Positions 42,270-64,000 of a stretch of DNA of 64,000 nt are shown one piece after another; within the stretch, counting starts at the first letter, position 1; the number at the start of each line of letters is the position of its first letter. The stretch is from positions 14,322,001-14,386,000 of the forward strand of contig CM120641.1 in the NCBI GenBank assembly GCA_051362555.1, read 5' to 3'. This stretch comes from Lingula anatina (lineage: Eukaryota; Animalia; Brachiopoda). The notes beneath the pieces were generated by a model that was not told where the DNA came from, did not search any database, and worked only from the letters and a program-made list of their open reading frames with translations. Position numbers and translations under genes: made by a program.

Positions 42270-45200
42270 ATGGACAACTACAAGCTGAATATAGCTGTTT
42301 TACTATTGGCCGTGGTGACAACTGCATCTGTTTTTTCTGCTTTCCTGGTCATCTATAGACATTCACCTTCTGCGTCTGTCAACCACACATGTAATGATCC
42401 ATGCAGGTAAAATATTGCTTGATAAAAGGGTGACTTAAATCATTTATTGACAATTTGATAATATTAGGATCTAATTATTGCTGAAGCACATTTCACTTTC
42501 ATTTCATGATGTGAAGATTGTTAGATTTGGCTAAGGAAATAATTGCTTTATGTCATTTTCATTTATTCTTCTTTTTTCCCCGTTGACCATCACTGTTACT
42601 GAGGACATATATGGTACAAATGTACATCTTTGTTGCCATAACATGAATTAAAGTATATCTTTTTTTCAGATTCTCCCTCATTGAAACCATTCCAGAAAAC
42701 CTCACTTACAATGGAACAAGTTTGAACCATCCTTCAATTTATGAGAGTTGGATGGAGTTGATAAGTGCAGCTAATGAGAGCATTGATATTGGAGCATTTT
42801 ATTTTACTCTACAGGGCAAAGATGTTATGGAAAATCCAGATCCTTCAGCAATCAATGTAAGGGATTCTTTTTCAATGTTTCAAAGTTATGAAGTACTGAA
42901 ACATGATACATGTATGCAGAAATTTTTTATTTTTTGTCTGTCAGTTACATTTCTATTTTCTGCCCTACAGAGAATTTGCTATGAAGATGTTAAAAGATGT
43001 TGAAATTGATATTCACTTTAAACCATGTGATAAAATTTTTAAAGTTTTTTTGATGAAAAACACAATGGTAATATTGTACTAACTTACTGTAGGGTGACAC
43101 AGTGTTCAATGGATTGAAAGATGCTCTGACAAAGAGGAAGCTGAAAGTGAGGATTGTTCAGTCCAAGCCAACTGGTGTAAGTCAGGGAAATGACACTGCT
43201 GTTCTGGGTCAGCTAGGTGAGTGAAATGGAAAAAATGGATTTAAGATAAGATATTAGATTAATTTAGGGAAATTGTGGCTTTTAACATTATTAGAAAGTA
43301 ATTATAATAACTGGTTTTAAAGTGAGTTCATGTCAGCATAATATGAGAAGTTGTCAAAATGTTTTTTCATTCTCAATGCTGTCAACAGCTTGAATTGACT
43401 TCCATAAATTTTTGTTCTCTAATTAGGTGCAGATGTTAGAAGCATAGACTTCCCTAAGCTTGTTGGAGCAGGGATACTACACACTAAACTGTGGGTTATA
43501 GATAATAAACATTTTTATGTTGGAAGTGCCAACCTTGACTGGAGATCTCTTGCTCAGGTGAACTTGTGTTACTACATATAGCCCATTCAGCATAATGCCA
43601 AACATGTCACCATAATGTTTCTGCAAGACATTTTTATAACATTGTTAAAACCTTTTGTATAACATTTTAAAAACGTTTTCTTGAAATATTATAATAATGG
43701 TTTAAAAGCATTTTTAAAAATGTTATTCAAAAAACCATACAAAACCATGTTAACCATGTTAAAACTGTACAAAATCATGTTATAAAAACATTATAAATGA
43801 CATTTTTATCACATTTGTGAAAACATTTTAATAACTTTTTAAAAACATTTTTGTCTTAACTTTCATCTTTAGTTCAGTTCTTAACACGTCAATTTATATC
43901 ATTTTGAACCGTTTTTATTGACATCTTTTACATTTTCCTGTAGGTGAAAGAACTGGGCACAGTCACATATGACTGTCCCTGTCTTGCTGCAGACATAGCT
44001 AAGATATTTGAAGCTTACTGGGCAATGAGTGCACCAGATGCTGAGATACCATCCCCATGGCCAGACAACTATGATACTATATATAACAACAGAACCCCTG
44101 CAGAAGTGAAGTTGAATGGGAAAGACCAGGCCATGGTGTACTTATCTGTAAGTCCATATAATCTTTTATGCTCCATAGCATTTCACTCATGATTAATCCA
44201 AAAGGTTTTTCAAAGGTCCACTTTCTATTTCACTATGCAATGGGGGTATTTCTTTTCATAATCTGCTGATGCCCATAGCATGTGGAGTTTACTAGAAACT
44301 TAACAAAAATTGTTAATCCATTTTCTTAGTATTATACATCAAAAGAATAATTGCAGATATCATATACACAGTATGAATAAAATCATATCTATTTAAGGCT
44401 TCATTCACATGCAATGTCTATTTTCTAAATTCTATTTTCTATTCGCGGTATGTCTTATGATCACGGTCTGTGCCCTGAATATCCCGCGGCATAATTACTG
44501 GCAGCGCGAGCCAGTTACTATAAGTTACTTTAAGTAACTGGCTCGCGCTGCCAGTAATTACGCCGCGGGATATTCAGGGCACAGACCTTGATCATAAGAT
44601 ACCGCGAATAGAAAATAGAATTTAGAAAATAGACATTGCATGTGAATGAAGCCTAAATGAAATTGATCATTTCAGAGCTCCCCACCTCAGTTCTGCCCTG
44701 CAAGTCGTACCACAGACATTGATGCTATTCTAGATATCATCAACAAAGCTCAGAAATTTATATATATTGCAGTGATGGATTATTTTCCCACTACGCTGTA
44801 TCTCCATCCCAACAGGTATTCACATTTCAACTAGCTGCCATGTTTGGGCTCATTTCCATTGAAACTATCATTCTATTAAGACCAATCCAACTCTGAAAGG
44901 ACTCACGCTGAATGCAATCAGATTTACAGATTAACACGTCTTTCTGCATGAGTCCCTGTAGAGTTGGATCAATCTACATGGAATTATTTAATTGGGAACG
45001 AGCCCTTAGAAGGTATAATGTGTGATGAAGGTTTCTTACTAAGGGATTTTAATTGCCAGTTATGTATTGTGCAGCCATTAATGGCTCTGTCTGTTGAAGA
45101 AGTACATGTGAAACTGAAAAACCAGTTACAATTTGGACCTCATTAGTAAAATTTTAATTTTGGAGTTAAATGTTTTTTTTTTTCAATTTACTCTGAGGTT

Positions 45201-47169
45201 TGCTAAGTACATATGCATGCAAATAATATTTTTTGTAATATAAAAAGTTATAAATACTGTATATTAAGTAACTAATTTCTGCTGTCATTCTCAAATGATT
45301 TTTTAAAATGTTTACTTTTATTCTGGACCCTGGATGCACTGTGATTAATTTCTCTCCATCACTGTATCATGCTTTCTTTACACATTATGTTTATATTCAA
45401 TAGCCTGGTTTGTGATAGACTTTGCCCTGGGAATTGCTACAATTTGTTTACATGTAATCTTTTTTCCCCAGAGCCTGGTTTGTGATAGACAATGCCCTGC
45501 GAATTGCAGCATATGAGAGGAATGTTGAAGTGAGAGTGTTGGGCAGTTGGTGGAATCACACACAACATTCTATGCCATATTTCTTGGAGTCCTTGAAATT
45601 ATACAGTAGACATATTCAAGTGGTAAGTAATCTGCCCATGCTTCTCACTCCAGCTTAATTGTATTTGAATGATTTACTCTGTGTCTGGATATTTTGCCGT
45701 CAGCTGCATCTTTTGTTACTATTAATGTTGCTATTGCAATTCGTGTGCAGTTTCTTGAATTTTTTTACTTTTAAACACAGAAGGAAAAGCCTGTAACTTA
45801 CTATTCTCAAACTTACAAGAATGATTCTTAGGACTAATAAATGACTTTAGATAAGAAACCAGCGTGATTGGATGATTTCTCTTGTTTTGGTAGAGTAAAG
45901 CGAAATCAATAAAACAGTGGAATGAATTCAATAGCATTGTGTACTTACGTAGTTTATATAATATTTTATCTAATTGTATGCGAATGATAATTACCTTACT
46001 CAAGGTTTTTCAACTTAGTCTTGATATATGCAAGTGTGAATTTTACTTGCAGAAACTCTTTGAAGTTCCAGCCTCAGTAAAGCAGGCCAAGATTCCATAT
46101 TCTCGTGTAAATCACAATAAATATATGGTCACAGAGAATGTGGCTTATGTAGGTAAGCGTGCTGGGTTTTGTGTGCACAAACCACAAGAAGGGGGGGGGA
46201 ATCCTCTTTTGCATATTTTTTTACTGCCTGTAAATTCATTTTAAGAAATTGAGAATGAACCAATACTTTAACCTAAAAGTTTGATTATTTAAATAATCAA
46301 ACATTTAAAAATAACAGATTTAAGCTCAAGACAGATTGAATCAAATCTATCTTGAAGAAGAAAATGTACATAAACACGCTGTGTTCAAGCTTATGTTAAT
46401 CTATGAGCGCATTCTCAACGAATTAAGCCAGGCTTTACAAAGCCGGTGACCTAAAAATGGCGGACGTACATGAAAGAAAGACCGCCTAATCTTTTAATAG
46501 TCTCTCCGCCTCCCCACACGTCGTCCCTGCGGGGTACAGTAATTAAATCTCGACTCTGTTCGCCATGCGGAAGCTACCTGAGAAATATTAAGTGCGCATG
46601 CTCATCAGTTAAACTCGTGGTGAAGAAAGCATGGCGGCTGAAGGCGATCGAAGGAAAAAAGCTCTTCTGTTCTATTATCTTTGAAAACAGAGACGAAAAA
46701 AGGAATAATTTGGCCCGTAGAGCAGCAATGAATCGACTATCTACGGAGATAATATCACCAGAGATATTCACGGAAATATTAATGTTCGGAGCCGAGATTT
46801 AATTACTGTACCCCGCAGGGACGACGTGTGCGGAGGCCTGTGAGAGACTATTAAAAGATTAGGCGGTTTTTCTTTCATGTACGTCCGCCATTTTTAGGTC
46901 ACCGGCTTTGTAAAGCCTGGCTTAATTCGTTGAGAATGCGCTCTATGTTTTAAACATGGTATTCCTTGATCATTTTTGTTTCACTTAATTACCCAGGTAC
47001 TTCCAACTGGTCTGGCGACTACTTCATTGACACTGGAGGCATAGGGTTCATTGTCAACCAGACTTCAAATTCTGCCAACAGTTCTATACCACAACAGCTG
47101 AAGGCCATATTTGACAGGGACTGGAATTCCAGTTATTCTCATCCTGTTACAGACCACATGAAAATATAG
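42270..47169 (+). CDS. PLD3: Phospholipase D3/D4 family 5'-3' exonuclease, type II membrane protein
   Basis: Exons 42270-42406 (TM, CNDPC), 42670-42856, 43093-43216, 43427-43557 ([18 protein letters not shown]; first HKD), 43944-44147, 44676-44815 (SSPP..YIAVMDY), 45472-45622, 46053-46152 ([11 protein letters not shown]; second motif), 46997-47169 ([17 protein letters not shown]). Confidence 0.92.
43610..43855. repeat. Degenerate short-motif array (AAAACATT/ATAACATT/AATGTT), probable decayed transposon subterminal region
   Basis: Many AAC(A/G)TT and AATGTT motifs in both orientations. Confidence 0.5.
44397..44653. mobile_element. Near-perfect palindromic MITE, PIF/Harbinger-like
   Basis: GGCTTCATTCACATGC...GCATGTGAATGAAGCC, ~120-bp arms with few mismatches, TAA on both flanks (44394-96, 44654-56). 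Confidence 0.92.
44846..45005. mobile_element. Old Harbinger-like MITE, family copy 3
   Basis: GGGCTCATTTCCA...TGGGAACGAGCCC; internal inverted ATCCAACTCT..GGACTCA / TGAGTCC..AGAGTTGGAT. Confidence 0.65.
46405..46943. mobile_element. MITE with ~150-bp TIRs and 3-bp TAT target duplication
   Basis: GAGCGCATTCTCAACGAATTAAGCCAGG...CCTGGCTTAATTCGTTGAGAATGCGCTC; TAT at 46402-04 and 46944-46. Confidence 0.92.
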
Positions 47170-48890: not shown

Positions 48891-49266
48891 TCATGACTTC
48901 TTCAGTGTGAGATAAATTGCTTTCAACCACACAGAAACTGCCACAGCCCCAGCATCTGGCTGGGTTTGTAGGTCTTTGCTGACATAGCTAGCACGGCCAG
49001 CACGGGCTGTCATGTTTGCAGTGTCTGCTGCTGCCTGTTCTGCTGCCTGCAAGAAAACATTCATAATGCTGGTGACACAAAAGATTCCTTTTGAAATGAT
49101 AAAATATGAACGCTGACTTCATATAACTCTAGTACATACTAAATCAAATATCAAGTTTCCTAATAAATAAATAAATAAATTCATTAGATGTAGCTCCTGA
49201 GTGAAACTTGGAAATTCATCTTGGTTAATTCATACTTCTCTGCCTTCCCCACTTTCTCTACTCCCC

Positions 49267-49317
<51 letters not shown>

Positions 49318-52300
49318 ATATGGCCAAACTATGTACAAGTGTAATAGCAAAATACCTTCACTGCAGTTTCAAAGGCATCTATTGGAGATGAGCTGGACAA
49401 ATTAGCCACAAGAGTATTGTAGGCGGCATTCATGGAGTCGAGCTAAAATAGATATATATATTACTGATTACATTGGTACAAGATAAAATGCAATCATTTT
49501 GTTTTATCTTGTGTCAATAAAAATCTTAAGTGGAAGTCATAAGTACAATTAATATTCACACTTTTTTGCCCTTTTCATTTAGCGAGGGTGGCAATAAAGT
49601 TATTCTGGGCCTAATGTGGAAATTAATCTATTCAAACCTCACCACTGTATCCCAACTGCATAACATGTATAGTATTTCCACATCCCATGCTTTTTGACAG
49701 CTGCTGGGGCCCTGTCCCTATTTACTCTGTTTACATTAGATATGATCATGTATGTTATATTTTAGCTATGCAAAATCAGTCCAAATCATTAAAGAAAATG
49801 GCCTACCATAGTCCTATCTCCTGGCTCTGCCCCACCATATCTGAAATGAAAATATAGAGCCAATCTAGGAATACATTGCAGAAAAAGAAAAAATGTTCAA
49901 GTACAGCAAATTTTGAAACACAACCCAGTCTGAATTTTGACAGAAATTTCATGTCAAGAATTATTTATCAAAATACTAATTGAAATTGCCTACTTGGAGA
50001 TAGCCTGCATGCCTTTTTGGAAAGCTGAACACCACCCTGTAGCACTAACGTCATGAGCTACAACTGCAGCAGCGGCTGTCACAAACAAGCTGTACATCTG
50101 AAATAGTTTGTGTTAATAACTTTCAATACTTTGAATTTTAAGCTGCATGGAAATGCAGTTTCCTTCACTGTCAATGTTTTAGCAGTAACAATTGGTAGAG
50201 CAAAGTCCTTCCTTACATAAAATGAAAAACACATTTTATGCAAGCAAGCATGCACACAAACTTCCTTGTAACTTACAGCTCCAGATGAGCCTCCCATCCA
50301 TCTTTCCACCAAGCATGCTAAAGACAGGAGCAGGTTTTGAGGGTGTGTAACTGGAAGACCTGGGGATGTCTCAGTGCCTAGATACTTCAGAATTCCTGAA
50401 AGTCAATTTCATTTCATTTTCTTTGAATCTATTTTATTACAGTACTTTCTATGCTTCTCTGTTTCACCTCTCATGTCATATCTTACTGTAATGAATTTTC
50501 TGCTACCTTAAATCCAACTTCAATTGAATACTTTTTACTTCTTCACCTTCAGCCCCAGCCTTGAGTGTTGAGCCACAATCTCCATCTCCTGTCTGGGAGT
50601 CCAGCTGGTTCAGGGAGCTCTCTTGACTTATCAGTGTCTCACATATTGCCTTGAGGATACTGTACAGCAACTTTCCTGTATCTGTAAGGGTCCATTTTTA
50701 TTTAATCAAACCAATAATATTAAGTATGATACATTGTATAAGGATACTTGTATCAACTACTGCTACATGTGAGTCCAGTATAACATATTGCAATATTCAC
50801 TGTAGAAAATTATATGTATATTTTTATATTTTTATATATTTATCACGATCATTCAGTAACATGTTTGTTAAAAAAAGTCCAGTAATGTGAACATTCACTG
50901 TCTTGCATTCTAGTATTCAAACATTGAGCACATATTTACTACAGGTGATCTATTACAAGTGATAAAATTAATTAGGGGTGGTGAAACTGCTAGTTCAAAA
51001 ATGGACAGCATATCAGGGTGACAATAAACAAAATCTCTTGCCTGCATCCACAGTGAGTCCTTCCCCACTGGTCACTATCATATCAGACAGGTCAGCATCG
51101 TCGGCTGGCATTCTCTCTGGGGTTTCTCTATTGGTCATACCTGGTGCAAGGAATGGGGGTGACCAGCCAGGAGCACTGGTGGCGGCATCTATAAGAAAGT
51201 GAATATATCAAATTGTAGATATGAAAAATTTTTTAAACAGTTTTTTTTTTATAATTATTTGGCATAATAATTTGGTAGTCAATTGTTGAAATGACAATTG
51301 CACAAACATTGATTTGTGAATGCTTATGAAAAATAACTTCTTTTATACGACATAATATAATATAAATAATAGTTAAATTGATTTTGTATATTAACATTTA
51401 TTACATAAATAGGGATCTTACCCAAGCATTTGGCTCTGACATCATTAAGGTGCATTACAGTGACGATGACACCTGCCATTTCTAAAGATGTCATAAATGA
51501 CCCACAGAAAGCTCTCTGTACCAACACACCCTTATTTTCTAGAACACATAAAAAACATATCGTAATCTATCTTCAATCTTATCCAAAATGCTATCAATGA
51601 GAAACATGAGAACAATTTGCTCTATCTCATACACAAGTTAATACAGTATATCATTATGCCAAATCATAATTTTTTACACATGCAAGAAATACTTTATTAC
51701 CTAAACTACGAATTACTTCCCCTGCCATTAAAGTTAGCTCCAACACAGATGTTCCACCAAGGTTGTTAACAAGCACTGCAACTTTGTCTCCTAATATGAT
51801 GAAAAAAGAAGAATATTTTTCATTAAATTAAAAAAGTAAGGTTGACAATCAATAATAAAGGTATGGATTTTAGACATAAGTGACAGTAAATTATACTGAA
51901 CAATCAAAAGTCAAATTCTTTGAGAAATTCTGTGAATCATTAGAACTACATGTATAGTTAATCCTATAATCCATGACTTCAATATGAATTTAATAATTGG
52001 ACATTTACCTTTATTTATGTCAAGATGTGTGCTGCTGTTCTTGTTGGTCATGTGGGCAATCATAGCTTCCACTGTTTCCTTGGCTGTTAACATCTAAAAT
52101 AAAGATTTATTTGTGAGAAAAATGTTAATTAAATATTTTCAACTGCTTACAACATTTCTGTTCAGAAAAATATTTATACCACTTAAAGCTCACCTTCAGA
52201 AAGATTTACTTATTGATACAATCTAAAGCATACCTTCATTCTCTTCACCCCTGCTTCGCCATGGACTCCTGAATACCATAGGGAAAACAATTCAGAATTA

Positions 52301-55300
52301 TCATAAAAATTGAAAAAAAAAATCCTTGATAATCATGACCTCTACCATATCAAAAAATATTAACTTAGAAAAGACATCTCAGAAACACACAGATCTAACT
52401 GTATACTTTTATAACCATGGAAGAATACACAGTACCTAAGCCAAGTTCCATCTCATCTTCTCCAAGCTGAAATGTAGGTCCCTGACCAGGAAGGCTACAT
52501 GGAGACAAGGCTATGCCAATTGTACCTTCAAAATAAAGCTACTTTTTATTAGTCCCCCTGTCATAAAATCCAACTAAAAAGAAATATGGCTTTTGATTTA
52601 GTCAGGCAAGAAATGTTAAAACAGCAAAAGGCTGTTTCAAAACTAATATTTCAATCTGACCAACGGGAACATCCAACATCAGTTATACATTTGGAATTAT
52701 ATTTGGCAATAAAACCATAAAGTTTGTGAATTAATAGTAAAAATATACAGAAATGTAACTAAACAAACAAAAGTAGTTCCGTACTACAAGGACTCACTAA
52801 AATAAAAACATAATGTGAATTTAATAAGTTCTGTAACTTTTACATTACCTATCCCTTAATTCAACCTTTTAATTATTTCCATCCACACCCCCCTTTTTTG
52901 TGATCCAGGCCATGTATAAAATTTTTAATATCAACTATTAAAACAATAATGATTACTGAAAAACTTATTTACCCATATTTTGTGTTGCTTCAGTACATAT
53001 GCTAACAATTTCTTCCAGTGGTCTTCCCTCTTCAGCTAGGGCCCCTGCAAGCTGTGATAAATACCAGTATTTAACAAGATTACCATGGTCAAATTCCTCA
53101 CCAGTTCAGACAAAGCTTCTAAATGTAACAGACACAAAAACCTAAGGCATTTTAAAACCATATCTGAGTGTCAAAGAAAGAAGCTTAATCCCTGTAAACT
53201 TGAATTTTTAATCAGGATGGTAAAAATCAAAGCCCTGCATATAATTTATTTTGCTGACAGTTCAAAATCTCAGAAAAAAATATATATCACAAAAGCATAA
53301 AGAACTGACTTAAGGTATTTTGAAACAAATAATGCAAGATAATGTAAGCTTTTTTTCTGTTCCATAAATATAACTGGCTGTAATCCATTTCAAAAAGTTA
53401 CGTATATACAAGCATAAGGAAAGAAACCTATTTCCATATTGGTAAATCATCCGTTATAAAAATTTGAATTCATTTTAAAGCTAAGGATGATTGCAAGCCT
53501 ATGGTCGTTATTTTCAACTATAAGGAATTCCTGGATGATAAACATTTATCTTTTCATCATGTGATAATGATCTGCTCTGGAACAATAATTATCACAAAAT
53601 TATAACAAATACTCAGTGAACTAAAATTCTATCTATTGGATGGGTGAAATACAGTGCAAACTGGTTGTTTTCCTGTCTGTAAATATAAAACCCACTAATA
53701 AAAATACATATGGTACATCAACCACAAAATAAAAAAGTGATAAGTACCCAGTACCAAGTCATATAGCAGATAGGTGGAATAAATAAGGTTTTTGAAAACA
53801 CACTTTAAGACTGTTTTTCCCCACTTCATTAAACATATATGATAAATTAATTAAATATATTGATGAATGTTGAGCAGAGCTCTATGAATCTGCCTTTAAG
53901 CCCCTAGCTGACATCAAGGTTGTATCTATTATGAAACGCATAAGCATATATGTAGTGTCAAACAAGTACCTTATGCAGAAATATAGTTCCACCTAACCCC
54001 CTTCTTCCAGCAGTTTTATCATGTGAAGTTAGAGCACAGTCCTCCCCTATTACTACCATATCCACTTTTATTCCTTCACTTTTCCCTCTTTCTGCTGCCA
54101 GGCCAAAGTTGATCCTGTCCCCAGTGTAGTTTTTCACAACCAGCAAAACACCACCTACACATCAGAGGTTATGATTCCAAATGAAGCAAATATTAGTGGG
54201 CAGAATTGTTAATCTATATAAAACCACCACCAGTATTCCTCAAAACAAAACAACCTGCCAACTGCTTAGTAAATGAGCACTTGTTTATGCCATAGCCAAA
54301 AAGACAGAACCAAACAGTTCGATTTTCTTATCTGTTTGTTTCTTTTCTAATCAAATAGCTAGATTTTATCAGCCTAATTTTCTAAATTTTATTATTATTC
54401 TTTTTTACAAATCACAATGAAAATTAAATTGAAAAAATATATATCTAATCATTGTCTTACTTGAGACAAAACTTTCCCACTGGCCAAAATGCTGCATGTA
54501 ATTGTTTGAAAAACAAGTCAACAAACAGGTAGGCAGGTCATATTTGAAATCAAGTGATAATCAAATGTAGCAGCCATGTTTTGTTCCAGCATGAGGAAAT
54601 AATACCTTCCACGTCACAATAAATCCACACATTCCTCTCCTCCCAGCTGATTTATCAGCACTTGTCAAAGCGCAATCCTCTCCCACTACAACCATTTTAA
54701 TGTTAATGTTTTCTCTCTTGGCTCTCTCAAATGCAATGCCAAACGTTAGTCTATCACCAGTGTAGTTAGCAACGCACAGTAACACACCTCCTGTGCAAAT
54801 AAGGGGCAGTTAAGATTTTTTAAAAAGAGTACATTCTAGTATGTGCATAGTGACAGGAGAGAATTTAAATGATATGAAAGCATGGTATGATATGTGGAAT
54901 TTATGTTAAGAAACATTGATGTAAAATAGCATAAGGGAAAGTTAAGGGTTATCAAAATGTAAATTTTTATAGTTATCAAGTCATTAGACAGATAAAAAAA
55001 AATTGTTAGATTATAGCAAAAGATAACAATAATGGAATAACTTGTGTTGTTAGACAAAAATCATGTACAAAATGCAGTACTAGTAGATGTTTTGTAAAAA
55101 CACCTAAGATTCAATATAGTAACTGATAATTATTAGTATTTGCTAATTAACAAATCAATATTATTCCATTATTATTCCTGCAAATAAAACATTGTGCAAA
55201 GCATATACTTTTATCCCATCATAAGATTTCTATGACTGTAAGCATATTTTTCCCTTTGCACACCAACTTGATCAATAAAAAACTAAAACTTATCAAATTT

Positions 55301-56107
55301 GCTTTCTTAAACCAAAAGAAAAAAGCAAAAAGATGAACAGAAAGACAATGCTAAAATAAGCCAAGTGCCTCATCTCAATACAAAACTGAGAGTACTTACA
55401 CATTTATGCATGTATTTTCCCTACCTTTGTTTCCTTTTCCTACTGCCCTGATTCCTGCCAATATGCTGTTTGGTGGAGGAGAGGCAAATACTGCTCCACA
55501 TACTGCAGCACTCAGCATACCACGGCCCACGTAGCCTATACACAGGAAAAACAACTACTAGTATATATGTTTTATACAAAGCATGTTAAAAATCATTTGA
55601 AAATGTATTCCTTTCCTCTTAATGATAACATACTAAGTTCATATATAAAAATATGACATCTGACAGGGTCTAAAAACTTTTATAGAGATAAAACCAAAAT
55701 AAATTCTTCACCAAATCTAGAGCAGGTCCTAAAATATTTACACATCTAACACATAAACAGATAATTTTTTTCATCATACTCAGCCCTGACAATTGTGATA
55801 TGCAGTACCACACCTAGAGCATCCAGAAAAATGTACTAAAAGGCAATCCACAGGATAGCTAGGGGGGATGTCTGCTGGCTTTGCTGCCACTGACTATACC
55901 TGGATGTGCTGGTTCATGACCAGACCCTCCTCCAGAAATTACAGCAACTTTCCCAGATGCTTTATATTCTTCAATGTCAGACCTGACCACAACTCGATGG
56001 CCTTGTAAAAGTCTAGCACCAGGATTGACAGCAACAAAACCTTCCAAGCTATCATCAACACATCTTTCTACTGTGTTGATTAGCTTTTTGCCCTTTGCCT
56101 GAGACAT
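48891..56107 (-). CDS. TKFC: Triokinase/FMN cyclase (dihydroxyacetone kinase, DhaK+DhaL fusion)
   Basis: Exons 55900-56107 ([11 protein letters not shown]), 55425-55535 ([20 protein letters not shown]), [54606-54790 or 53970-54154], 52973-53051, 52436-52525, 52234-52268 (GVHGEAG, catalytic His), 52009-52093, 51701-51790 (VNNLGG), 51422-51538 (FMTSLEMAG), 51042-51188, 50547-50681 (GDGDCG), 50277-50395 (MGGSSGA), 49994-50097, 49807-49840 (GDRTM), 49356-49442, 48891-49046 (AGRASY, PDAGA). Confidence 0.93.
49262..49316. repeat. poly-C run followed by (CA)n microsatellite
   Basis: Directly visible in a TKFC intron. Confidence 0.95.
53970..54154 (-). CDS. TKFC: TKFC alternative exon B (canonical VKNYTGD...TIFLHK)
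   Basis: 185 nt; acceptor gtgtag|GT, donor AAG|gtact; matches the family consensus KNYTGD-x-NFG. Confidence 0.9.
54606..54790 (-). CDS. TKFC: TKFC alternative exon A (variant VANYTGD...FIVTWK)
   Basis: 185 nt; acceptor tgcacag|GA, donor AAG|gtatt, branch-like CTTAAC upstream; open frame homologous to exon B. Confidence 0.85.
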
Positions 56108-58015
56108 TTTCTCTGCAAAATATAAAGAATTATTTTTTAAAAACACAGTAATCACTAATAACCTGCAGATAGAGTATTCATGCCTATTGACTGTAAGCCA
56201 ATATACTGTACATGCATATGTGGTATGTCAAAATAAGTTATTTTTGGTAATAAAGAATAACGAAAAGCAGCAGATTTTGAGTTTGTTTAGATAAGTTTTA
56301 TTTCAAAACATATATTCGAATAATATAAATAATCTATAAATAACAAGGCTGTGACATGAGAATGATTTAAATGATATGCTCACCATCAAATAAATGGTCC
56401 TGCAAATAGCTGGTTCCACATTTAAAAAAATTGTCATCAAAATAAAAACTTCATTAAAATTAAATAAAAGTAAAAAGTCATCACATCTTTCAACTTTGCA
56501 TTTTGAACTTCAAATAATAATTTCAGTATTGAAAAAGTCATCTAAAAAAATCCAATTAATTGGGCAGCGAACAATCAGCAAAAAACACATCTGAGACATA
56601 CATGTACCTACAGTATTCACATGTACTAGTAGTATGCCTTTTTATAATGGAGGATAATACAACCATATGCATGTACAGGTATTATGTTTCAGTGAGCATG
56701 TAATAAGTTTATGATTTAAAAAATTTAATAATATTAAACTGACAATGCATGTATTAAAATACATTTCAACAAAGTTCATATTAAATTGTGTACTGGAAGT
56801 ACACCTTTTCAATATGATATGGGGTTTTGTATATAAGTCTCAATTTAATACAATGCATGCTTTGTCACATGTCATATTCACACGAAAACCCAAGCCAGAT
56901 GTGCAAGATCATTCATTAATCGCTCCATTTTATTTACGCTTGTTATGAAAATATGCTAAAGTGTCTAAGATACATGTGAAAAGTTTCAGCAGATTAAAAT
57001 AAAAACCATGCTAGCTAAGAAACACACCTGCCCGAATCAACACAAGAGATCCGCGTTTGCTTCAAGCTGCATGCAAATATCTTTCTCACTGCTCCCTTGA
57101 CCTACATCGAGGCCCATAATAGTTCAAGGCATTTCCTTATCTATGACACGTATAGCCTAAGTGATATAACCCAGCGAACCGAAACTCTTCTCGTACCTGC
57201 TCTTTACTATTTGGAGATTCATTTGAAACAGACGTGGAGCAAATGCTGAAATGAACACCTTTTTCATAAAACTTGGACAAATAAAACGATATGCTCTTCC
57301 AAAAATAAATCAAATATTATTCAGCGAAAAAGAAATGTCATTGATGCAAATTATTGTAAACTAAGTGAAATTCTATAATAATTTGATTTAATAAAAATTA
57401 GAAGTATTGAAACTAATAAAGTAACGTGGTGCAGCTTTGTAAAGAGCGTCTGCATGAGTCGGTCAAGTTTTTAAGTTAATGAAATACAAAGTACCAGTAA
57501 ATTTCATCATTTGTGATAGATAACACGTTTGGTAAAGAAAATGAGATTTTTTTATCGCACTGTGCTCTAAGTAAGCCACTTCCCCTGTAGTAACGTGGGT
57601 ACAAAATGGAATAGTGCATGCGTACGAGTCTGCAGTGATAGACTGACCGTAAGTACTGGTATTGCACAACGTTACCAAACAGGCAAGAATATTCAAACGT
57701 TAAAACATAGCCAGTCCTTTTGTGCCACGGTTTTACTATGAGTATGTTGTATCTACAGTAGTTGGTAAGTTGAAGCGCACAAAATTTAAATGATTTAAAT
57801 GGGATGTGGCACTAAGTATTTTTACTGTTACAGCTGTACATGTACTGTACCAATGGCGGTACATTTCAAATATTACATACGCACACACACACACACACCA
57901 TATGGTGTACTCTGTGTAAAGTGACATTTTTCCTTTCATTACAGTTCTTCTTAAAATTATACTTCATTTGTAAATTTTAGTTATAAAAGCCCAAAATCAA
58001 GACAAGTGAGTGGAA

Positions 58016-61000
58016 ATGAATAGTGTTAAAAGGAGAGGAGGCCGTCCAAATCGTGGTGGTGGACAGAAGGCAGCCAGAGGTAGGGGAGGCAGTGGTGGAA
58101 GAGGAAAAAGAGGTAGAGGTGGAGGAGGTGGCCACGTACCAAGAGAGAAAGGTGGTGCTGGAATTAGTCTGGATGATTATGAGGACTTTAGTGTCACCAG
58201 CTCAGGTGCTCTAGGAGGAGGAGGAGGAGGTCATTTCACCAGAGAAAAAAGTGCTGCACCAAACTGGACTACAAATGATAATTTTTCAGGAAGGGGAGGA
58301 GGCAGAGGACGTTTCAGTGGCGGGTAATAAAGTTTCTGTTCTTAAATTGAATGTGAAAATGTCAGTGCATTTACCAAATCATTGACTAGCATTTGAAATA
58401 CAAAAATGTAAATCATAATGTTAAAAAGAATTGGGTTTAGCTTTGAAAAATGGCTTACAAATTTTCCTGTGATTATCAGTAATTTCCAAATACTTACTGC
58501 CCATGACTCTTTTAAGTTGTGAGCAAATGCAGAAACTTTAAACTTGAAATACCAGTATACCTTGGCACTTATGGGCAGTAGCACAGGAAATGTAAAGAGA
58601 ACATCAGAACATAAAAAATAATGAACTTTTGGTTTACTTTTCTTTTTTGAATAGGCAAATTACTGCACAGTACTAGCATGCCATTGCATGGAAATTATGG
58701 CTGTATTTCTTGTTAATTGTATTTATTTCAGAAACTTTCCTATCAGAACCAAAGTCCCAATGCAAAAACTCCACATGAGCACAGAAAATCAGGATTTGGT
58801 GAAACAGGCACTGCTGGAGTTACAAGGAGACAATGAAGATGAAGAAAGGTATATATTACTCACTGGGTATATCAGAAGATCAAATGTGAAATAGTTATTG
58901 CTGTATTTCAAGGAAGTTGAGAAAGTGGTCCAGGTGAAATAATGTACAATTCTGCCAAGCAGAAGATGTTACTTTGAGTCTCTGTAATATTTTAGTATAT
59001 GATGTTTAAAAGTACAATGCTTTATATCACATATTTTTAAAAAAATGTTCTTTTCAAATCTTGTATGGGTTTCAGTGATGCTATCTTGGAATATAAGGAT
59101 AAAGATCTAAGAACTGCACAGCAGTACTGGATGACAGATAATAAATTGATGGTTGAAGGTGCTACTCAGTTTACTGAAGAAGAATCAGGGGAGACAGAAT
59201 TTGAGCAGGCAAATAAATATGCCCTAAACAAATTGATGAGGTAATTTTTTAGAGGCAAGATCATTTTGGGAATTTTGATTGTTTGGTTTACTGATTCAAT
59301 CAGTTAGATACACCAAGTACAGTTATTTCTCATATTAATGAAATGTAAACTCCCAGTTTATTATGAATGCTAGTGAAGGAATTGATTGTTGTTTTAAAAA
59401 AGTCCCAAATACTTTTGCATTGCAGTTATGGATTTGATAAATCCAGATGCCTTGAAGCCTTGACAGATAAAGATGGAGATGTGGGCAGGTGTTTGGAGAG
59501 TTTAATATCTGAGCTTGATGAAGATGACCTTAACAACATGGAAGGAGAGGAAATGCCATTAGAAGAACTTGAAAGTGAACGCCAAGATGAAAAAATGGCT
59601 CTAGAGGCCATATATGGAAATGCCTTTTGTGAGAGGATTCCAAAACAAGTGTGGACAATTGATTTAGACTTGGATTTTATTAAAGAATACTATAGGACCA
59701 TTCAAGCAAGGAAAATGCCTGAGACCAGAAAAAAATACAAAATAAATGTGGATCCTGTAGAAAAGAAACCATGCCTTTACTTTCAAAGGGGAAGCTGCAA
59801 GTATGGTAACAGATGTCAATACAAACATGCAAAGCCTGAAGGTGACAAACCTGCCTCCAATCCACATGCAAATTTAGAAGAATTAAATAAAGATGGAAAA
59901 AGTAAATTTCAGTTGGAAATTAGATTTCCAAATGGAAATTTGTACCCACAACAACCTCCAATTCTTGCAGTATCTACACAGTTTAAGGAAATGCCTGGCT
60001 ATATGTTGTTAAATATTACAAAAAGACTTATGCAGGAGGCAAAAGAGGTTGCTGATACCGGTGCTCCAGTTGTTTTTTCACTTGTAAGTTTATTAGAAAA
60101 CGAAAGTGAAATGCTAGATGTTCTTTCACAGCCGCCCCTCGAACTCAGTCTGCCAAGTGTAAAGCAAAAAGGTAAGCCTGAAATAGATCCTAGTCAAACA
60201 ACAGAATTGGGTGATCTTGAGGAGGAAGAGGAAATTGCTGATTTTGAAGAGGAAATGGAGAATCCAGTAACAATGGAACCTGAACACAAAGCAGAGGCCA
60301 ACAAGAAACCTGTCAGACAAGAACCTCAAAGATTGGATCCTCATAGGGTGAAAAGGGAAAATAATAGAATTCGTGAAAAGTTCAAGAGAGCACAGGTACA
60401 GTGATATCTTAGTTTATGTGGATTGTAAGCCACTATGTCTGAAATTTGCTTATATTCTTTGAAAATTGCAAATGTTTCAAGATAACTACATGTACATGTA
60501 CATGCACCTCCTTAAACATGAATATGTTAACTGAAAATTGTTCTATAATAACTTTTTTGTATGTCAGAATTTGCCAGCTTACAAAAAGATGCAGGCTATA
60601 AGGAAAAACCTTCCAGCCTGGGAGCAACAACATGAAATCCTCAAAGTCATTGCTGAAAACCAAGTGGTAGTGATAAGTGGAATGACAGGGTAAGTTTACT
60701 TGCATGTTGTTGCAGTCTGAGTAAAGCTGATATAACCAGCAGCTGTGTAATTTGAAAAGATCATTTTGTTGAATTTGGTATGGTTAGCGGTACTACTTAC
60801 AAAGGGTGTAACTAGTTAGTATAAAATGCTTTTTTTTTTACCAAAAAAAAAATATTTGGTCTTTTTTAAGTCAGTTACACTTTTTAGCAAACTGAATTGT
60901 GTTTCACATAAGATTTTTTAAAAATTGCTTTACCCCTAGCTGATTTGGTAGGCGTGACAGTCGTTTAATCCTCTTGAGCTGATAGCAATTTAGCCTGAAC

Positions 61001-61671
61001 CCCCAGGGAGTTAGGTTGATCCAGATGGATCGATATAAGTATGGGAACCCAGTCTAAGATGAAATTCAGTTAACTTGACACAGATTTCTACTCACAGGGG
61101 CAACAGTGCTTAGACTGCTATCCCTTTGGTCATTGGATTTACCAAGACTGCTGCATGAATTAACAGACTTGGTTTAGCCCACTTAAATAATCCATAGTAT
61201 ATACACTTGCTTAACTTTTAAGAGACACTTAACTGACAAAGCTAAACCTCCAAACAAAATGTTAAAATATTAAGTATGCACCTTTTTTTCCTCCATAAAC
61301 CATAGATGTGGCAAGACAACCCAAGTTCCACAATTCATACTGGACTCCTACTTAAATGCCAAGTCAGCAGACATGTGCAATATTATATGTACCCAGCCCA
61401 GAAGGATATCTGCCATGGCAGTGGCAGAGAGAGTGGCAGAAGAGAGAGCAGACAGGCTAGGGGGCATTGTAGGATACCAAATTAGACTTGAGAGTGTTCA
61501 GGTAATTCCATTATGAAAAGTGCATGTCTGAAAACATGTAAAGTTTCCCCCCAGGCTCATACAATATTTTAAGTTAGGATACTTTAAATACAACTCTCAA
61601 TCTGATGTTGATGTTGATTCTTCAAACAGTGTTATATTTTCCAGCCTTTTTTGTAATATTTTTTGTAATAT

Positions 61672-61746
<75 letters not shown>

Positions 61747-64000
61747 TTACAAAAGTGAAATTTTATGGATAAGGAATCATATTGTTTTATTTAGAGACCC
61801 TTATAACCATCTTCAAGGCTAATAACTTTCTCTTTTGTTCCAGTCTGCCTCTACCAGATTACTGTTCTGTACCACAGGTATTTTACTGCGGCGTCTGGAA
61901 GGAGATGGTCTTCTGGAAGGTGTGTCACATGTTATCATTGATGAAGTACATGAAAGAAGTGAGGAAAGGTAAGATATTAATTGTTTTATTTGATAAAATT
62001 ACCTTGTTAATGATGCTTGGGAATTAATTAGTGACTATGATTGACTGTGTACTACTGTAATTAGACAGACAACATTACTGAACTTGACTGACATACATAT
62101 ACTAGTAAAAATCTGTTTTGATTATGTGACTATGATTTATGAATACCTTTATAAAATTGTTTTACAAATGATAGTTCTCACTTCTGCTCTGTTATCTGGA
62201 AATGTTTTGGTTCCAAGAAATTATTCATATTACTGTTTTTATGTATCTCTTCCATATCACTAGTATATAAATACATGAATGAAGTAACTTGACAAACATA
62301 ATATGTAGGTTGATTGATATTGATATTTTGACAAATTGCTGTTATTAATGGTAAATCGAAGTGAGAATTAATATGAATTTTTTTTAACCAATACGTAATG
62401 AAATACAATGTATATTGCAACAAGCACTGAAATATAATATGGCCAAACTATAGGGATAATAAGTTGGGAATGAAAGGATTTTGTGGGGTTGCAGAAAGGC
62501 TAACTATAATTATTGCATGAAGCTACTGGTATTGCATCTGTGGAGCATTCATATTGCTTTTATTGTTTTTAGTATCATAATATATACATGGTAAAAACCT
62601 AAAAAAAAAAAAAAGAAAAAAAAAAGAAACAGCACATTCAGAACTACTGAACCAAAAGATTTCTTGGTAGACTGAAATTGCCATCATGGTTTTGCTATTA
62701 TAGTTTTTATTGATACCCAATTCAAAATGGCAGCTCTTAAAATTGTTGCTGGTTGCTGAATACAATTTTCTTCCAGTCTTTGACAATTTTATCAGCCATG
62801 ACCAGCAAAACCAATAGTTTCTTCATGTCTGATGAAATGTCTATTCTTCCAGTGATTTCTTAATGATGGTACTGAGGGATATGCTACCACACAGGAAGGA
62901 TTTAAAGGTGATCTTGATGAGCGCCACTCTAAATGCAGATCTTTTCTCATCCTACTTCAGTCTATGTCCAGTTGTGCACATCCCAGGTGTGTTTTGTTTG
63001 AATAACTAATTGCCATTACTTATATTACTTAAATGCATATATGATAAATAATGTGTAAAAATGTTTATAAGTGCAGAAATAAGGTTTGTCAAAACCATTA
63101 CCTGTCTAAGTATTAGAAAAAAATTCATCTGTGAATTCATATGGATAATTGATTATTTCTGACTGTTTCAGGGAAAGCTTTTCCTGTTGACCAGTATTTC
63201 TTGGAAGATGCTATAGAAATGACTAAGTAAGATTCAAGTTAACAGACTCTGGGATGTATGAATAGAAGAAGAGTGCTTCAAAAAAGTTAATAACATTTAA
63301 AAATAAACAGGAAAATCTTAAGGTGAATTAAAAAATAAAAACTAATTTTTTTACTTAAAAGCAGCAATTTAAAATTACCCAATAGTCTTATTTTGTAATA
63401 TTTCCCTGTAAAGCTAACACTGTTTTGGTGCATGTTTTAGATTTGTGATGGATGAGACTTCACCCTATGCCAAACCCCGAGATGTGATGAGAAAACTGCA
63501 GACTGCTGAGAGGGAAGAATTCAGTAGACTCAAGGGACATGATGGTTTTTCCATGCAAGACCTGGAGGAGGCAGCCTTTGATGTGCCAGGAAATATGAAA
63601 GCTGCCAAGGATAGTGTTGATGATGCTAAATTAACTGTGAGACAGCTAATTTTGAGATATCCAGGTAGATATCCTGAATACATGTAAATATTTTGCCACA
63701 TATTTTTAATGTGTTCTTTCCTGTAGACATATTGTAGCCCTTAAATACATAATTGTAACATTTTGAAAAAGATGCACTGGTATGTTTTAAACCTAATTCT
63801 TGCATGTTTGATAAAAATGTATATAATTATATGAAAGCTCTTACCATGGGCTATTTTGAGGATTGAATTTGCACCTGATGGTTTATTATATGGTTTATTA
63901 TATTGCTTTCAGACTACAAAAAATCAACAATCAGGAGCTTGTCATTGATGGACTTTGAAACCATTAATTATGACCTAGTAGAGAATGTACTTGAATGGAT
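58016..64000 (+). CDS. DHX57: DExH-box helicase 57 (RGG N-terminus, UBA, RWD with CCCH zinc finger, helicase core); 3' part beyond window
   Basis: Exons 58016-58323 (RGG-rich), 58732-58848, 59076-59240, 59426-60395 ([11 protein letters not shown]; C-x7-C-x5-C-x3-H; YPQQPP), 60568-60689 + 61306-61501 ([27 protein letters not shown]), 61844-61968 (DEVHER), 62853-62986 (LMSAT), 63172-63226, 63441-63664, 63913->64000. Confidence 0.92.
60972..61054. mobile_element. Right-arm fragment of the same MITE family (copy 4)
   Basis: GCAATTTAGCCTGAACCCCCAGGGAGTTAGGTTGATC closely matches 24366-24402; ends GGGAACCCAGTC|TAA. Confidence 0.65.
61671..61748. repeat. (TATT)n microsatellite
   Basis: Directly visible in a DHX57 intron. 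Confidence 0.95.

Follow-up and report, generated by a model that had tools for sequence, protein, structure and literature searches.

Two tandem copies of exon 3 in Lingula anatina TKFC encode isoforms that may differ in their sugar pocket

The triokinase/FMN cyclase gene (TKFC) of the brachiopod Lingula anatina carries two homologous tandem copies of exon 3, A and B, and the swap between them changes a set of three residues in the encoded kinase: Lys114, Thr163 and His167 with exon B; Ala, Phe and Trp with exon A. The gene lies in the window (the whole stretch of 64,000 nucleotides of DNA analysed here) and its features are given in Table 1. Judging from sequence comparison, we see about an even chance that the two isoforms have different sugar pockets, the one without the lysine (Lys-less) probably being a kinase for a four-carbon (C4) ketose of the erythrulose type. 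The reading of B as a triose kinase and of A as a form opened for a four-carbon ketose draws on the loss of this residue set, on Lys-less genes at bacterial loci and on the bacterial kinase LerK. Among the alternatives raised in the initial annotation of this DNA, specificity for a larger sugar has the most support from these comparisons.

Both copies are bounded by AG and GT and run from phase 1 to phase 0 in one open frame each. Inclusion of both exons leads to a stop at amino acid 175 and omission of both to a stop at amino acid 113. This agrees with the initial annotation, which had described a homologous pair of 185 nt exons with intact splice sites, in which inclusion of both or neither shifts the frame and a KNYTGD active-site segment is exchanged for ANYTGD; both segments are present in the sequence and in the RefSeq isoforms. 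The copies encode the same residue in 40 of 61 whole codons (41/62 counting a split Gly codon) and are identical at 116 of 185 nucleotides (63%), with 42, 50 and 23 matches at the first, second and third codon positions (61 each). The proportions of differing synonymous and non-synonymous sites are 0.72 (pS) and 0.27 (pN), giving Jukes-Cantor (JC) values of 2.4 for dS and 0.33 for dN and a dN/dS of approximately 0.14, with synonymous sites near saturation; comparison of the introns flanking A and B found no similarity. Given the 23/61 identity at third positions, the excess of pS over pN and the unrelated introns, the duplication is an old one, and both copies have since been held under protein-level constraint; the two exons are under purifying selection between them. 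No other doubled TKFC exon was found by tBLASTn within the window.

Table 1. Features of the L. anatina TKFC locus, in window coordinates
Feature	Position	Strand	Basis
TKFC (triokinase/FMN cyclase) coding region, 16 exons per isoform, 593 aa with exon A or exon B	48891..56107	-	frame, TIGR02361
Constitutive exon 2, upstream of the pair, donor AAG/GTAGGG (slash at the exon end)	55425..55535	-	frame, RNA
Exon 3A, Lys-less copy (ANYTGD ... GFIVTWK), minor in the RNA runs examined	54606..54790	-	sequence, RNA, RefSeq X2
Ala114 codon replacing the family Lys	54768..54770	-	sequence, alignment
Phe163 ... Trp167 codons replacing co-varying Thr163 and His167	54609..54623	-	alignment
A-B intron, 451 nt, ordinary GT-AG, branch-point-like motifs 42-58 nt from the 3' end	54155..54605	-	sequence
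Exon 3B, canonical copy (KNYTGD ... GTIFLHK), major in RNA	53970..54154	-	RNA joints, RefSeq X1
Lys114 codon	54132..54134	-	sequence
Constitutive exon 4, downstream of the pair	52973..53051	-	frame, RNA
His227 codon (GVHGE), hemiaminal-forming His, common to both isoforms	52261..52263	-	alignment; role from human His221 (PMC13663913)

The pair is already in RefSeq as predicted isoforms, unremarked in the literature searched. XP_023931485.1 (isoform X1) corresponds to exon B and XP_023931486.1 (isoform X2) to exon A, which is a 100% match to 'triokinase/FMN cyclase-like isoform X2 [Lingula anatina]'; the two models share 572 of 593 residues and all 21 differences fall inside the swapped segment. 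RefSeq also holds a second, nearly identical Lingula TKFC locus, XP_013395583.1 (rows P0016/P0001 versus P0017), with only a B model in the cluster, which is probably an uncollapsed haplotype. Elsewhere in the gene, intron 10 (51041-50682, minus strand) starts with a GC donor (GCAAGA) that is required by the frame. The neighbouring genes are a phospholipase D-like gene (Pfam PLDc_3; approximately 43900-46250, plus strand), tail to tail with TKFC, and a helicase-like gene with RWD and CCCH domains (58000-64000, plus strand), head to head with TKFC, which we take to be DHX57-like.

Both exons match positions 83-143 of Pfam Dak1 (E-values 4e-23 and 1e-19), and both isoforms have fused Dak1 and Dak2 domains (Pfam, TIGR02361). 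Scores against TIGR02361 are 581.1 bits for isoform A and 597.5 bits for isoform B, above the curated cut-off of 574.95; isoform A scores higher with TIGR02361 than with PRK14479 and is 96% identical to canonical TKFC. It resembles the ATP-dependent dihydroxyacetone kinases and human TKFC (TIGR02361) in its Dak1-Dak2 fusion, its catalytic His, Thr and Asp and its PDB 1un8 fold.

In an alignment of 61 exon-3 rows, Thr163 is present in 31 of 31 Lys-type rows versus 8 of 30 Lys-less rows, and His167 in 27/31 versus 3/30. The Tyr-Thr-Gly-Asp of the motif and His227 are kept in all 61 rows; in the Lys-less rows His227, Thr117, Asp119 and the GSGHEP motif are invariant or nearly so, and the residue in place of the lysine varies (A, T, P, I, S, M, L or G). 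An AlphaFold model of isoform A (mean pLDDT 92.5) has the DhaK fold, like PDB 1un8; residue 114 ends a strand (109-114), and residues 163 and 167 lie one turn apart on a helix (162-175). The three residues may be in contact, and in isoform B a Lys-Thr-His contact would close one side of the sugar pocket. The lysine is present in all five distinct solved DhaK chains whose alignment was inspected, and the residue numbers of the motif fit the PDB chains (E. coli K104/D109; C. freundii K109/D114). It is presumably a substrate contact in DhaK domains; no statement of its role was found in the literature searched, which missed most subscription papers. For the human K domain, PMC13663913 describes triose bound on His221, with Thr112 and Asp114 of the motif catalytic or proposed to be catalytic.

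Relatives were compared through protein annotations only, giving 27 isoform or same-cluster pairs. Eleven of these, from a brachiopod, a nemertean and nine bivalves (Lingula, Lineus, Mercenaria, Ruditapes, Mya, Dreissena, Pecten, Ylistrum, Mytilus californianus, M. trossulus and Sinanodonta), differ solely in the exon-3 segment, and in all 11 the Lys of one form is matched by Ala, Thr or Pro in the other. A twelfth pair, from Mizuhopecten, differs in the segment and at the N-terminus, and 15 pairs have no type difference; with Mizuhopecten counted, a Lys/no-Lys isoform pair is annotated in 11 species besides Lingula. A Pinctada gene model contains both segments, the Lys-less one first, in the same order as in the window. 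Between related bivalves, the Lys-less exon is 93, 98, 100 and 79% identical versus 87, 91, 94 and 72% for the rest of the protein. In these annotations relatives retain exon A in undecayed form; its absence or decay there, with dN/dS near 1, was named in the initial annotation as something that would refute the idea.

The two forms also occur as separate genes, in nine pairs selected because each gene has one form: Haliotis (two pairs), Crassostrea, Saccostrea, Babylonia, Gigantopelta, Patella, Branchiostoma and Amphiura. Among the matches listed, vertebrate and cnidarian rows are all Lys and tunicate rows all Lys-less; an insect-type query, which favours its own type, returned Lys in none of 106 new matches, with one unread. 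Beyond what the initial annotation noted, the change is a three-residue set (Lys114, Thr163, His167), and bilaterians have retained both forms, either as alternative exons or as separate genes. Several other sequences were recorded: isoforms of the Haliotis Lys-less gene (P0040/P0181, P0182/P0183) differ only at amino acids 296-332, likely a second K-domain exon swap; Elysia, Lymnaea and Biomphalaria (rows P0077, P0084 and related) have Thr for Lys yet keep Thr163 and His167, and Diadema (P0122) has Thr for Lys, keeps Thr163 and is placed within the Lys-type echinoderm group, all of these likely being separate losses; and a plant model, Eleusine coracana (P0124), has two DAK copies with ANYTGD in the second, which may be a mis-joined exon.

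In a tree of the 61 exon rows from which the Lys column had been dropped, the two types required seven label changes versus 20.6 when labels were shuffled. Mollusc Lys-less exons and genes clustered with two unnamed rows (support 83/84), and the Lineus pair grouped together (95/75). The oyster Lys-less exon joined the bivalve Lys-less exons, and a tree built from the protein outside exon 3 placed the two oyster genes, Lys and Lys-less, as sisters (SH-aLRT 100). Given that the oyster genes are sisters outside exon 3, the exon pair was likely split by gene duplication in oysters. The rest-of-protein tree also grouped nine deuterostome Lys-less genes (96), separately from those with Lys. In comparisons between phyla, Lys-less exons resemble one another no more than they resemble Lys exons. 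In AU tests on the exon alignment, a single clade of 27 Lys-less rows, from which Elysia, Lymnaea and Diadema had been dropped after tree inspection, was not rejected (p 0.166), and Lingula A and B as sisters was rejected (p 0.0098); in a quick tree built after removal of the Thr and His columns as well, the Lingula pair (0.43) and a clade of all 30 (0.33) both escaped rejection, and these tests on 61 rows are compatible with one origin or with several.

Bacterial paralogues show the same loss. Among six plasmid loci hand-picked from 50 listed rows, seven of nine DhaK-like proteins are Lys-less, and all seven also lack Thr and His; as in exon A, an aromatic residue is often present. One of these genes (L003) adjoins rpiB, tpiA and transketolase genes and another (L001) adjoins pdxA; the two Lys-type proteins sit in a dhaK/L/M cluster. 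A setting of the rpiB/tpiA/transketolase type has been tied to erythrulose use by a dihydroxyacetone kinase (PMC5992420). LerK of Mycolicibacterium smegmatis phosphorylates L- and D-erythrulose, according to PMC10733421, and lerK as given in its supplement, translated by eye, reads FGNYAGD at the motif. Like isoform A, LerK is a member of the DAK family with no Lys before NY.GD (Gly in LerK, Ala114 in exon A); it differs in having Gly and not Ala, Thr, Pro or Ile, in its NYAGD and GHYP variants, and in being a distant bacterial paralogue. The likeness is at most convergent, and on its profile score and fold isoform A is assigned here to the ATP-dependent DAK family, not to LerK.

Under the preferred reading, an old tandem duplication would have given TKFC two copies of exon 3, likely spliced one at a time; exon B, with Lys114, Thr163 and His167, would make the canonical triose kinase, and exon A, with Ala, Phe and Trp, a minor second isoform whose opened pocket is predicted to accept a larger ketose, e.g. 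erythrulose. In animals, erythrulose may arise from ascorbate breakdown or polyol turnover. Later gene duplication, in oysters and likely in gastropods and deuterostomes, would have left one form in each copy. Some observations count against a C4 ketose as the substrate: the variable replacement of the lysine fits lost constraint as well as a gained substrate; insect and tunicate matches are all Lys-less, so that this form may still do the triose job; and the Elysia and Lymnaea forms lose Lys but retain Thr and His.

It is possible, though in our view somewhat unlikely, that both isoforms act on trioses only and that the Lys-less form, with another Km or another ratio of dihydroxyacetone to glyceraldehyde, is a tissue-tuned isozyme as KHK-A is beside KHK-C. 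The catalytic motif residues are all kept, both isoforms pass the cut-off for glycerone kinase (581 and 598 versus 575 bits) and insects and tunicates have only Lys-less matches, all of which would fit such an isozyme; the loss of the same Lys, Thr and His in bacterial paralogues of non-triose gene clusters, and in LerK, argues against it. Human KHK is a close parallel: KHK-A and KHK-C are mutually exclusive isozymes of a fructose-pathway kinase made with alternative exon 3, the swapped stretch lying by the ligand site (PMC11332825 and PMC9741552), and they differ chiefly in affinity for sugar, as assayed (PMC11332825). KHK differs, however, in having a PfkB fold and in conserving the contact residue of its swapped stretch, whereas one TKFC copy loses a residue that is conserved from bacteria to vertebrates; and the KHK isoforms have been assayed, whereas TKFC isoforms A and B are known from sequence.

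We think it improbable that the isoform without the lysine has little or no kinase activity and serves another purpose, such as FAD cyclase activity, the sensing of trioses (as in DhaQ) or the binding of proteins by the K domain. Changes in this domain can abolish kinase activity but leave the cyclase intact, and the human K domain on its own inhibits MDA5 (PMC13663913); the variability of the residue in place of the lysine would also be consistent with such a role. Retention of His227, Thr117, Asp119 and the GSGHEP motif in the Lys-less rows speaks for a working kinase, however, and lineages with only Lys-less matches would otherwise have no triose kinase.

The use of the two exons was examined in seven of nine raw RNA runs carrying the same species label (all except X5 and X6), of each of which 6-30% was read, giving 6 to 90 reads a run at the locus; joints were listed from three reads up, and exon 4 was covered in four runs. 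Exon 2 was joined to B by 9, 2, 0 and 35 reads in runs X1, X4, X7 and X2, and run X3 had 22 loose ends into B, making 68 reads in all; B was joined to exon 4 by 5, 1, 1 and 7 reads. No exon A joint reached the three-read threshold in the seven runs, and none of the four low-depth runs covering exon 4 had a read from A to exon 4. In the depth bins of run X7, two reads start their exon 2 part at 55424 and break off their A part at the acceptor, the pattern expected of an exon 2-A joint; two reads cover 54074-54152 and 54604-54674 (150 letters), the pattern expected of an A-B joint. Both reads of each pair begin at the same position, which makes a single exon 2-A-B molecule likely; this sole spliced exon A molecule, as read from depth bins and not from a listed joint, would be the frameshifted form. 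The remaining A reads run into introns in runs X2, X3 and X7 or, in one case (run X8), lie wholly within exon A. From the exon 2-A-B molecule in X7 versus 68 exon 2-B reads, the A splice sites appear to work and A is rare in the RNA sampled; the productive A-only form was not seen in these seven low-depth runs. The strict mutual exclusion proposed in the initial annotation may hold in RNA, where B is spliced on both sides, but for A the junction to exon 4 was not seen in the four runs covering that exon and only exon 2-A-B could be deduced. An A-only mRNA may be made in some tissue or stage.

Differences between reads and window were synonymous in 2 of 2 cases in exon A, 5 of 5 in exon B and 4 of 6 in constitutive exons. 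In runs X7-X9, reads over 52900-55600 are mostly 90-99% like the window and, near 53944, show a divergent intron allele, as from a more distant population under the same label. Two reads of run X9 (54605-54467) cover the A-B intron and end exactly at the exon A donor, with unmatched letters beyond, which could be a lariat or an allele difference.

As mechanisms of exon choice, steric exclusion was ruled out by the A-B intron, which at 451 nt is too long, and minor-spliceosome exclusion by the GT-AG ends, given the splice-site consensus of that spliceosome. RNA pairing between introns was compared with shuffled sequences for seven region pairs, and six were no better than shuffled. The seventh, 54281-54252 with approximately 53772-53742 (minus strand), lies either side of exon B and pairs at -29.8 kcal, with one of 60 shuffles as low, which is not significant after seven tries; among 15 adjacent intron pairs, which are unequal in length, this pairing around exon B is the lowest. 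It would loop out B and is a lead only. Nonsense-mediated decay is a likely backstop and would remove transcripts with both exons or neither.

The RNA data bear on a further alternative, which we consider quite improbable, that Lingula exon A is no longer used alone and is included atop B as a leak or as a poison exon, leading to mRNA decay and lower TKFC. The one apparent spliced A molecule also contains B, no read joins A to exon 4, and at the second RefSeq locus (XP_013395583.1) the cluster shows B alone. Exon A nevertheless keeps its frame, its length and its conservation at the protein level, none of which a poison exon needs; RefSeq has an A-only isoform in Lingula and ten other species, and read depth at the locus was low. 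An assembly or annotation artefact (a collapsed allele or pseudo-exon), which the predicted status of the RefSeq isoforms might suggest, is very improbable and largely refuted by the 63% nucleotide identity and unrelated introns, by reads from other animals that span exon A and its flanks, and by the same pair in three phyla.

The initial annotation knew of no described mutually exclusive exon pair in this gene family, and we likewise found no earlier account of one in the literature searched, which missed most subscription papers, although RefSeq lists the isoforms. For human TKFC, the splicing described in the available parts of PMC11506722 and PMC13663913 concerns the last intron only; the terms 'mutually exclusive', 'invertebrate' and 'mollusc' have no occurrences in a 2026 review. 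The pair resembles the tandem duplicated exon substitutions of PKM, PFKP and ACOX1, in which homologous exons of the same length differ at one or two ligand residues, and in which after gene duplication each copy retains one exon (PMC9741552, with no mention of TKFC in its main text); it differs from them in being absent from vertebrate matches and present in lophotrochozoans.

The isoforms are a natural controlled experiment: they agree at 572 of 593 positions, and exchanging B for A takes away a group of residues conserved all the way from bacteria to vertebrates; a comparison of A and B bears on the role of the conserved lysine and on whether animals have a LerK-like tetrose kinase. Annotation draws no distinction between the two forms into which animal TKFC splits, and the gene offers an example of an exon pair that became gene pairs, in oysters and, probably, in further lineages. 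We would propose, tentatively and as a scenario that may well prove wrong, that an early bilaterian had a two-form TKFC, combining a triose kinase with an unrecognised animal tetrose (erythrulose-type) kinase on one exon switch; the switch would survive in brachiopods, nemerteans and bivalves and would have been split into two genes several times, vertebrates having lost the tetrose form and insects and tunicates having kept only that form. If this were true, most invertebrate 'triokinases' would be mis-assigned and animals would have a hidden salvage route for C4 ketoses.
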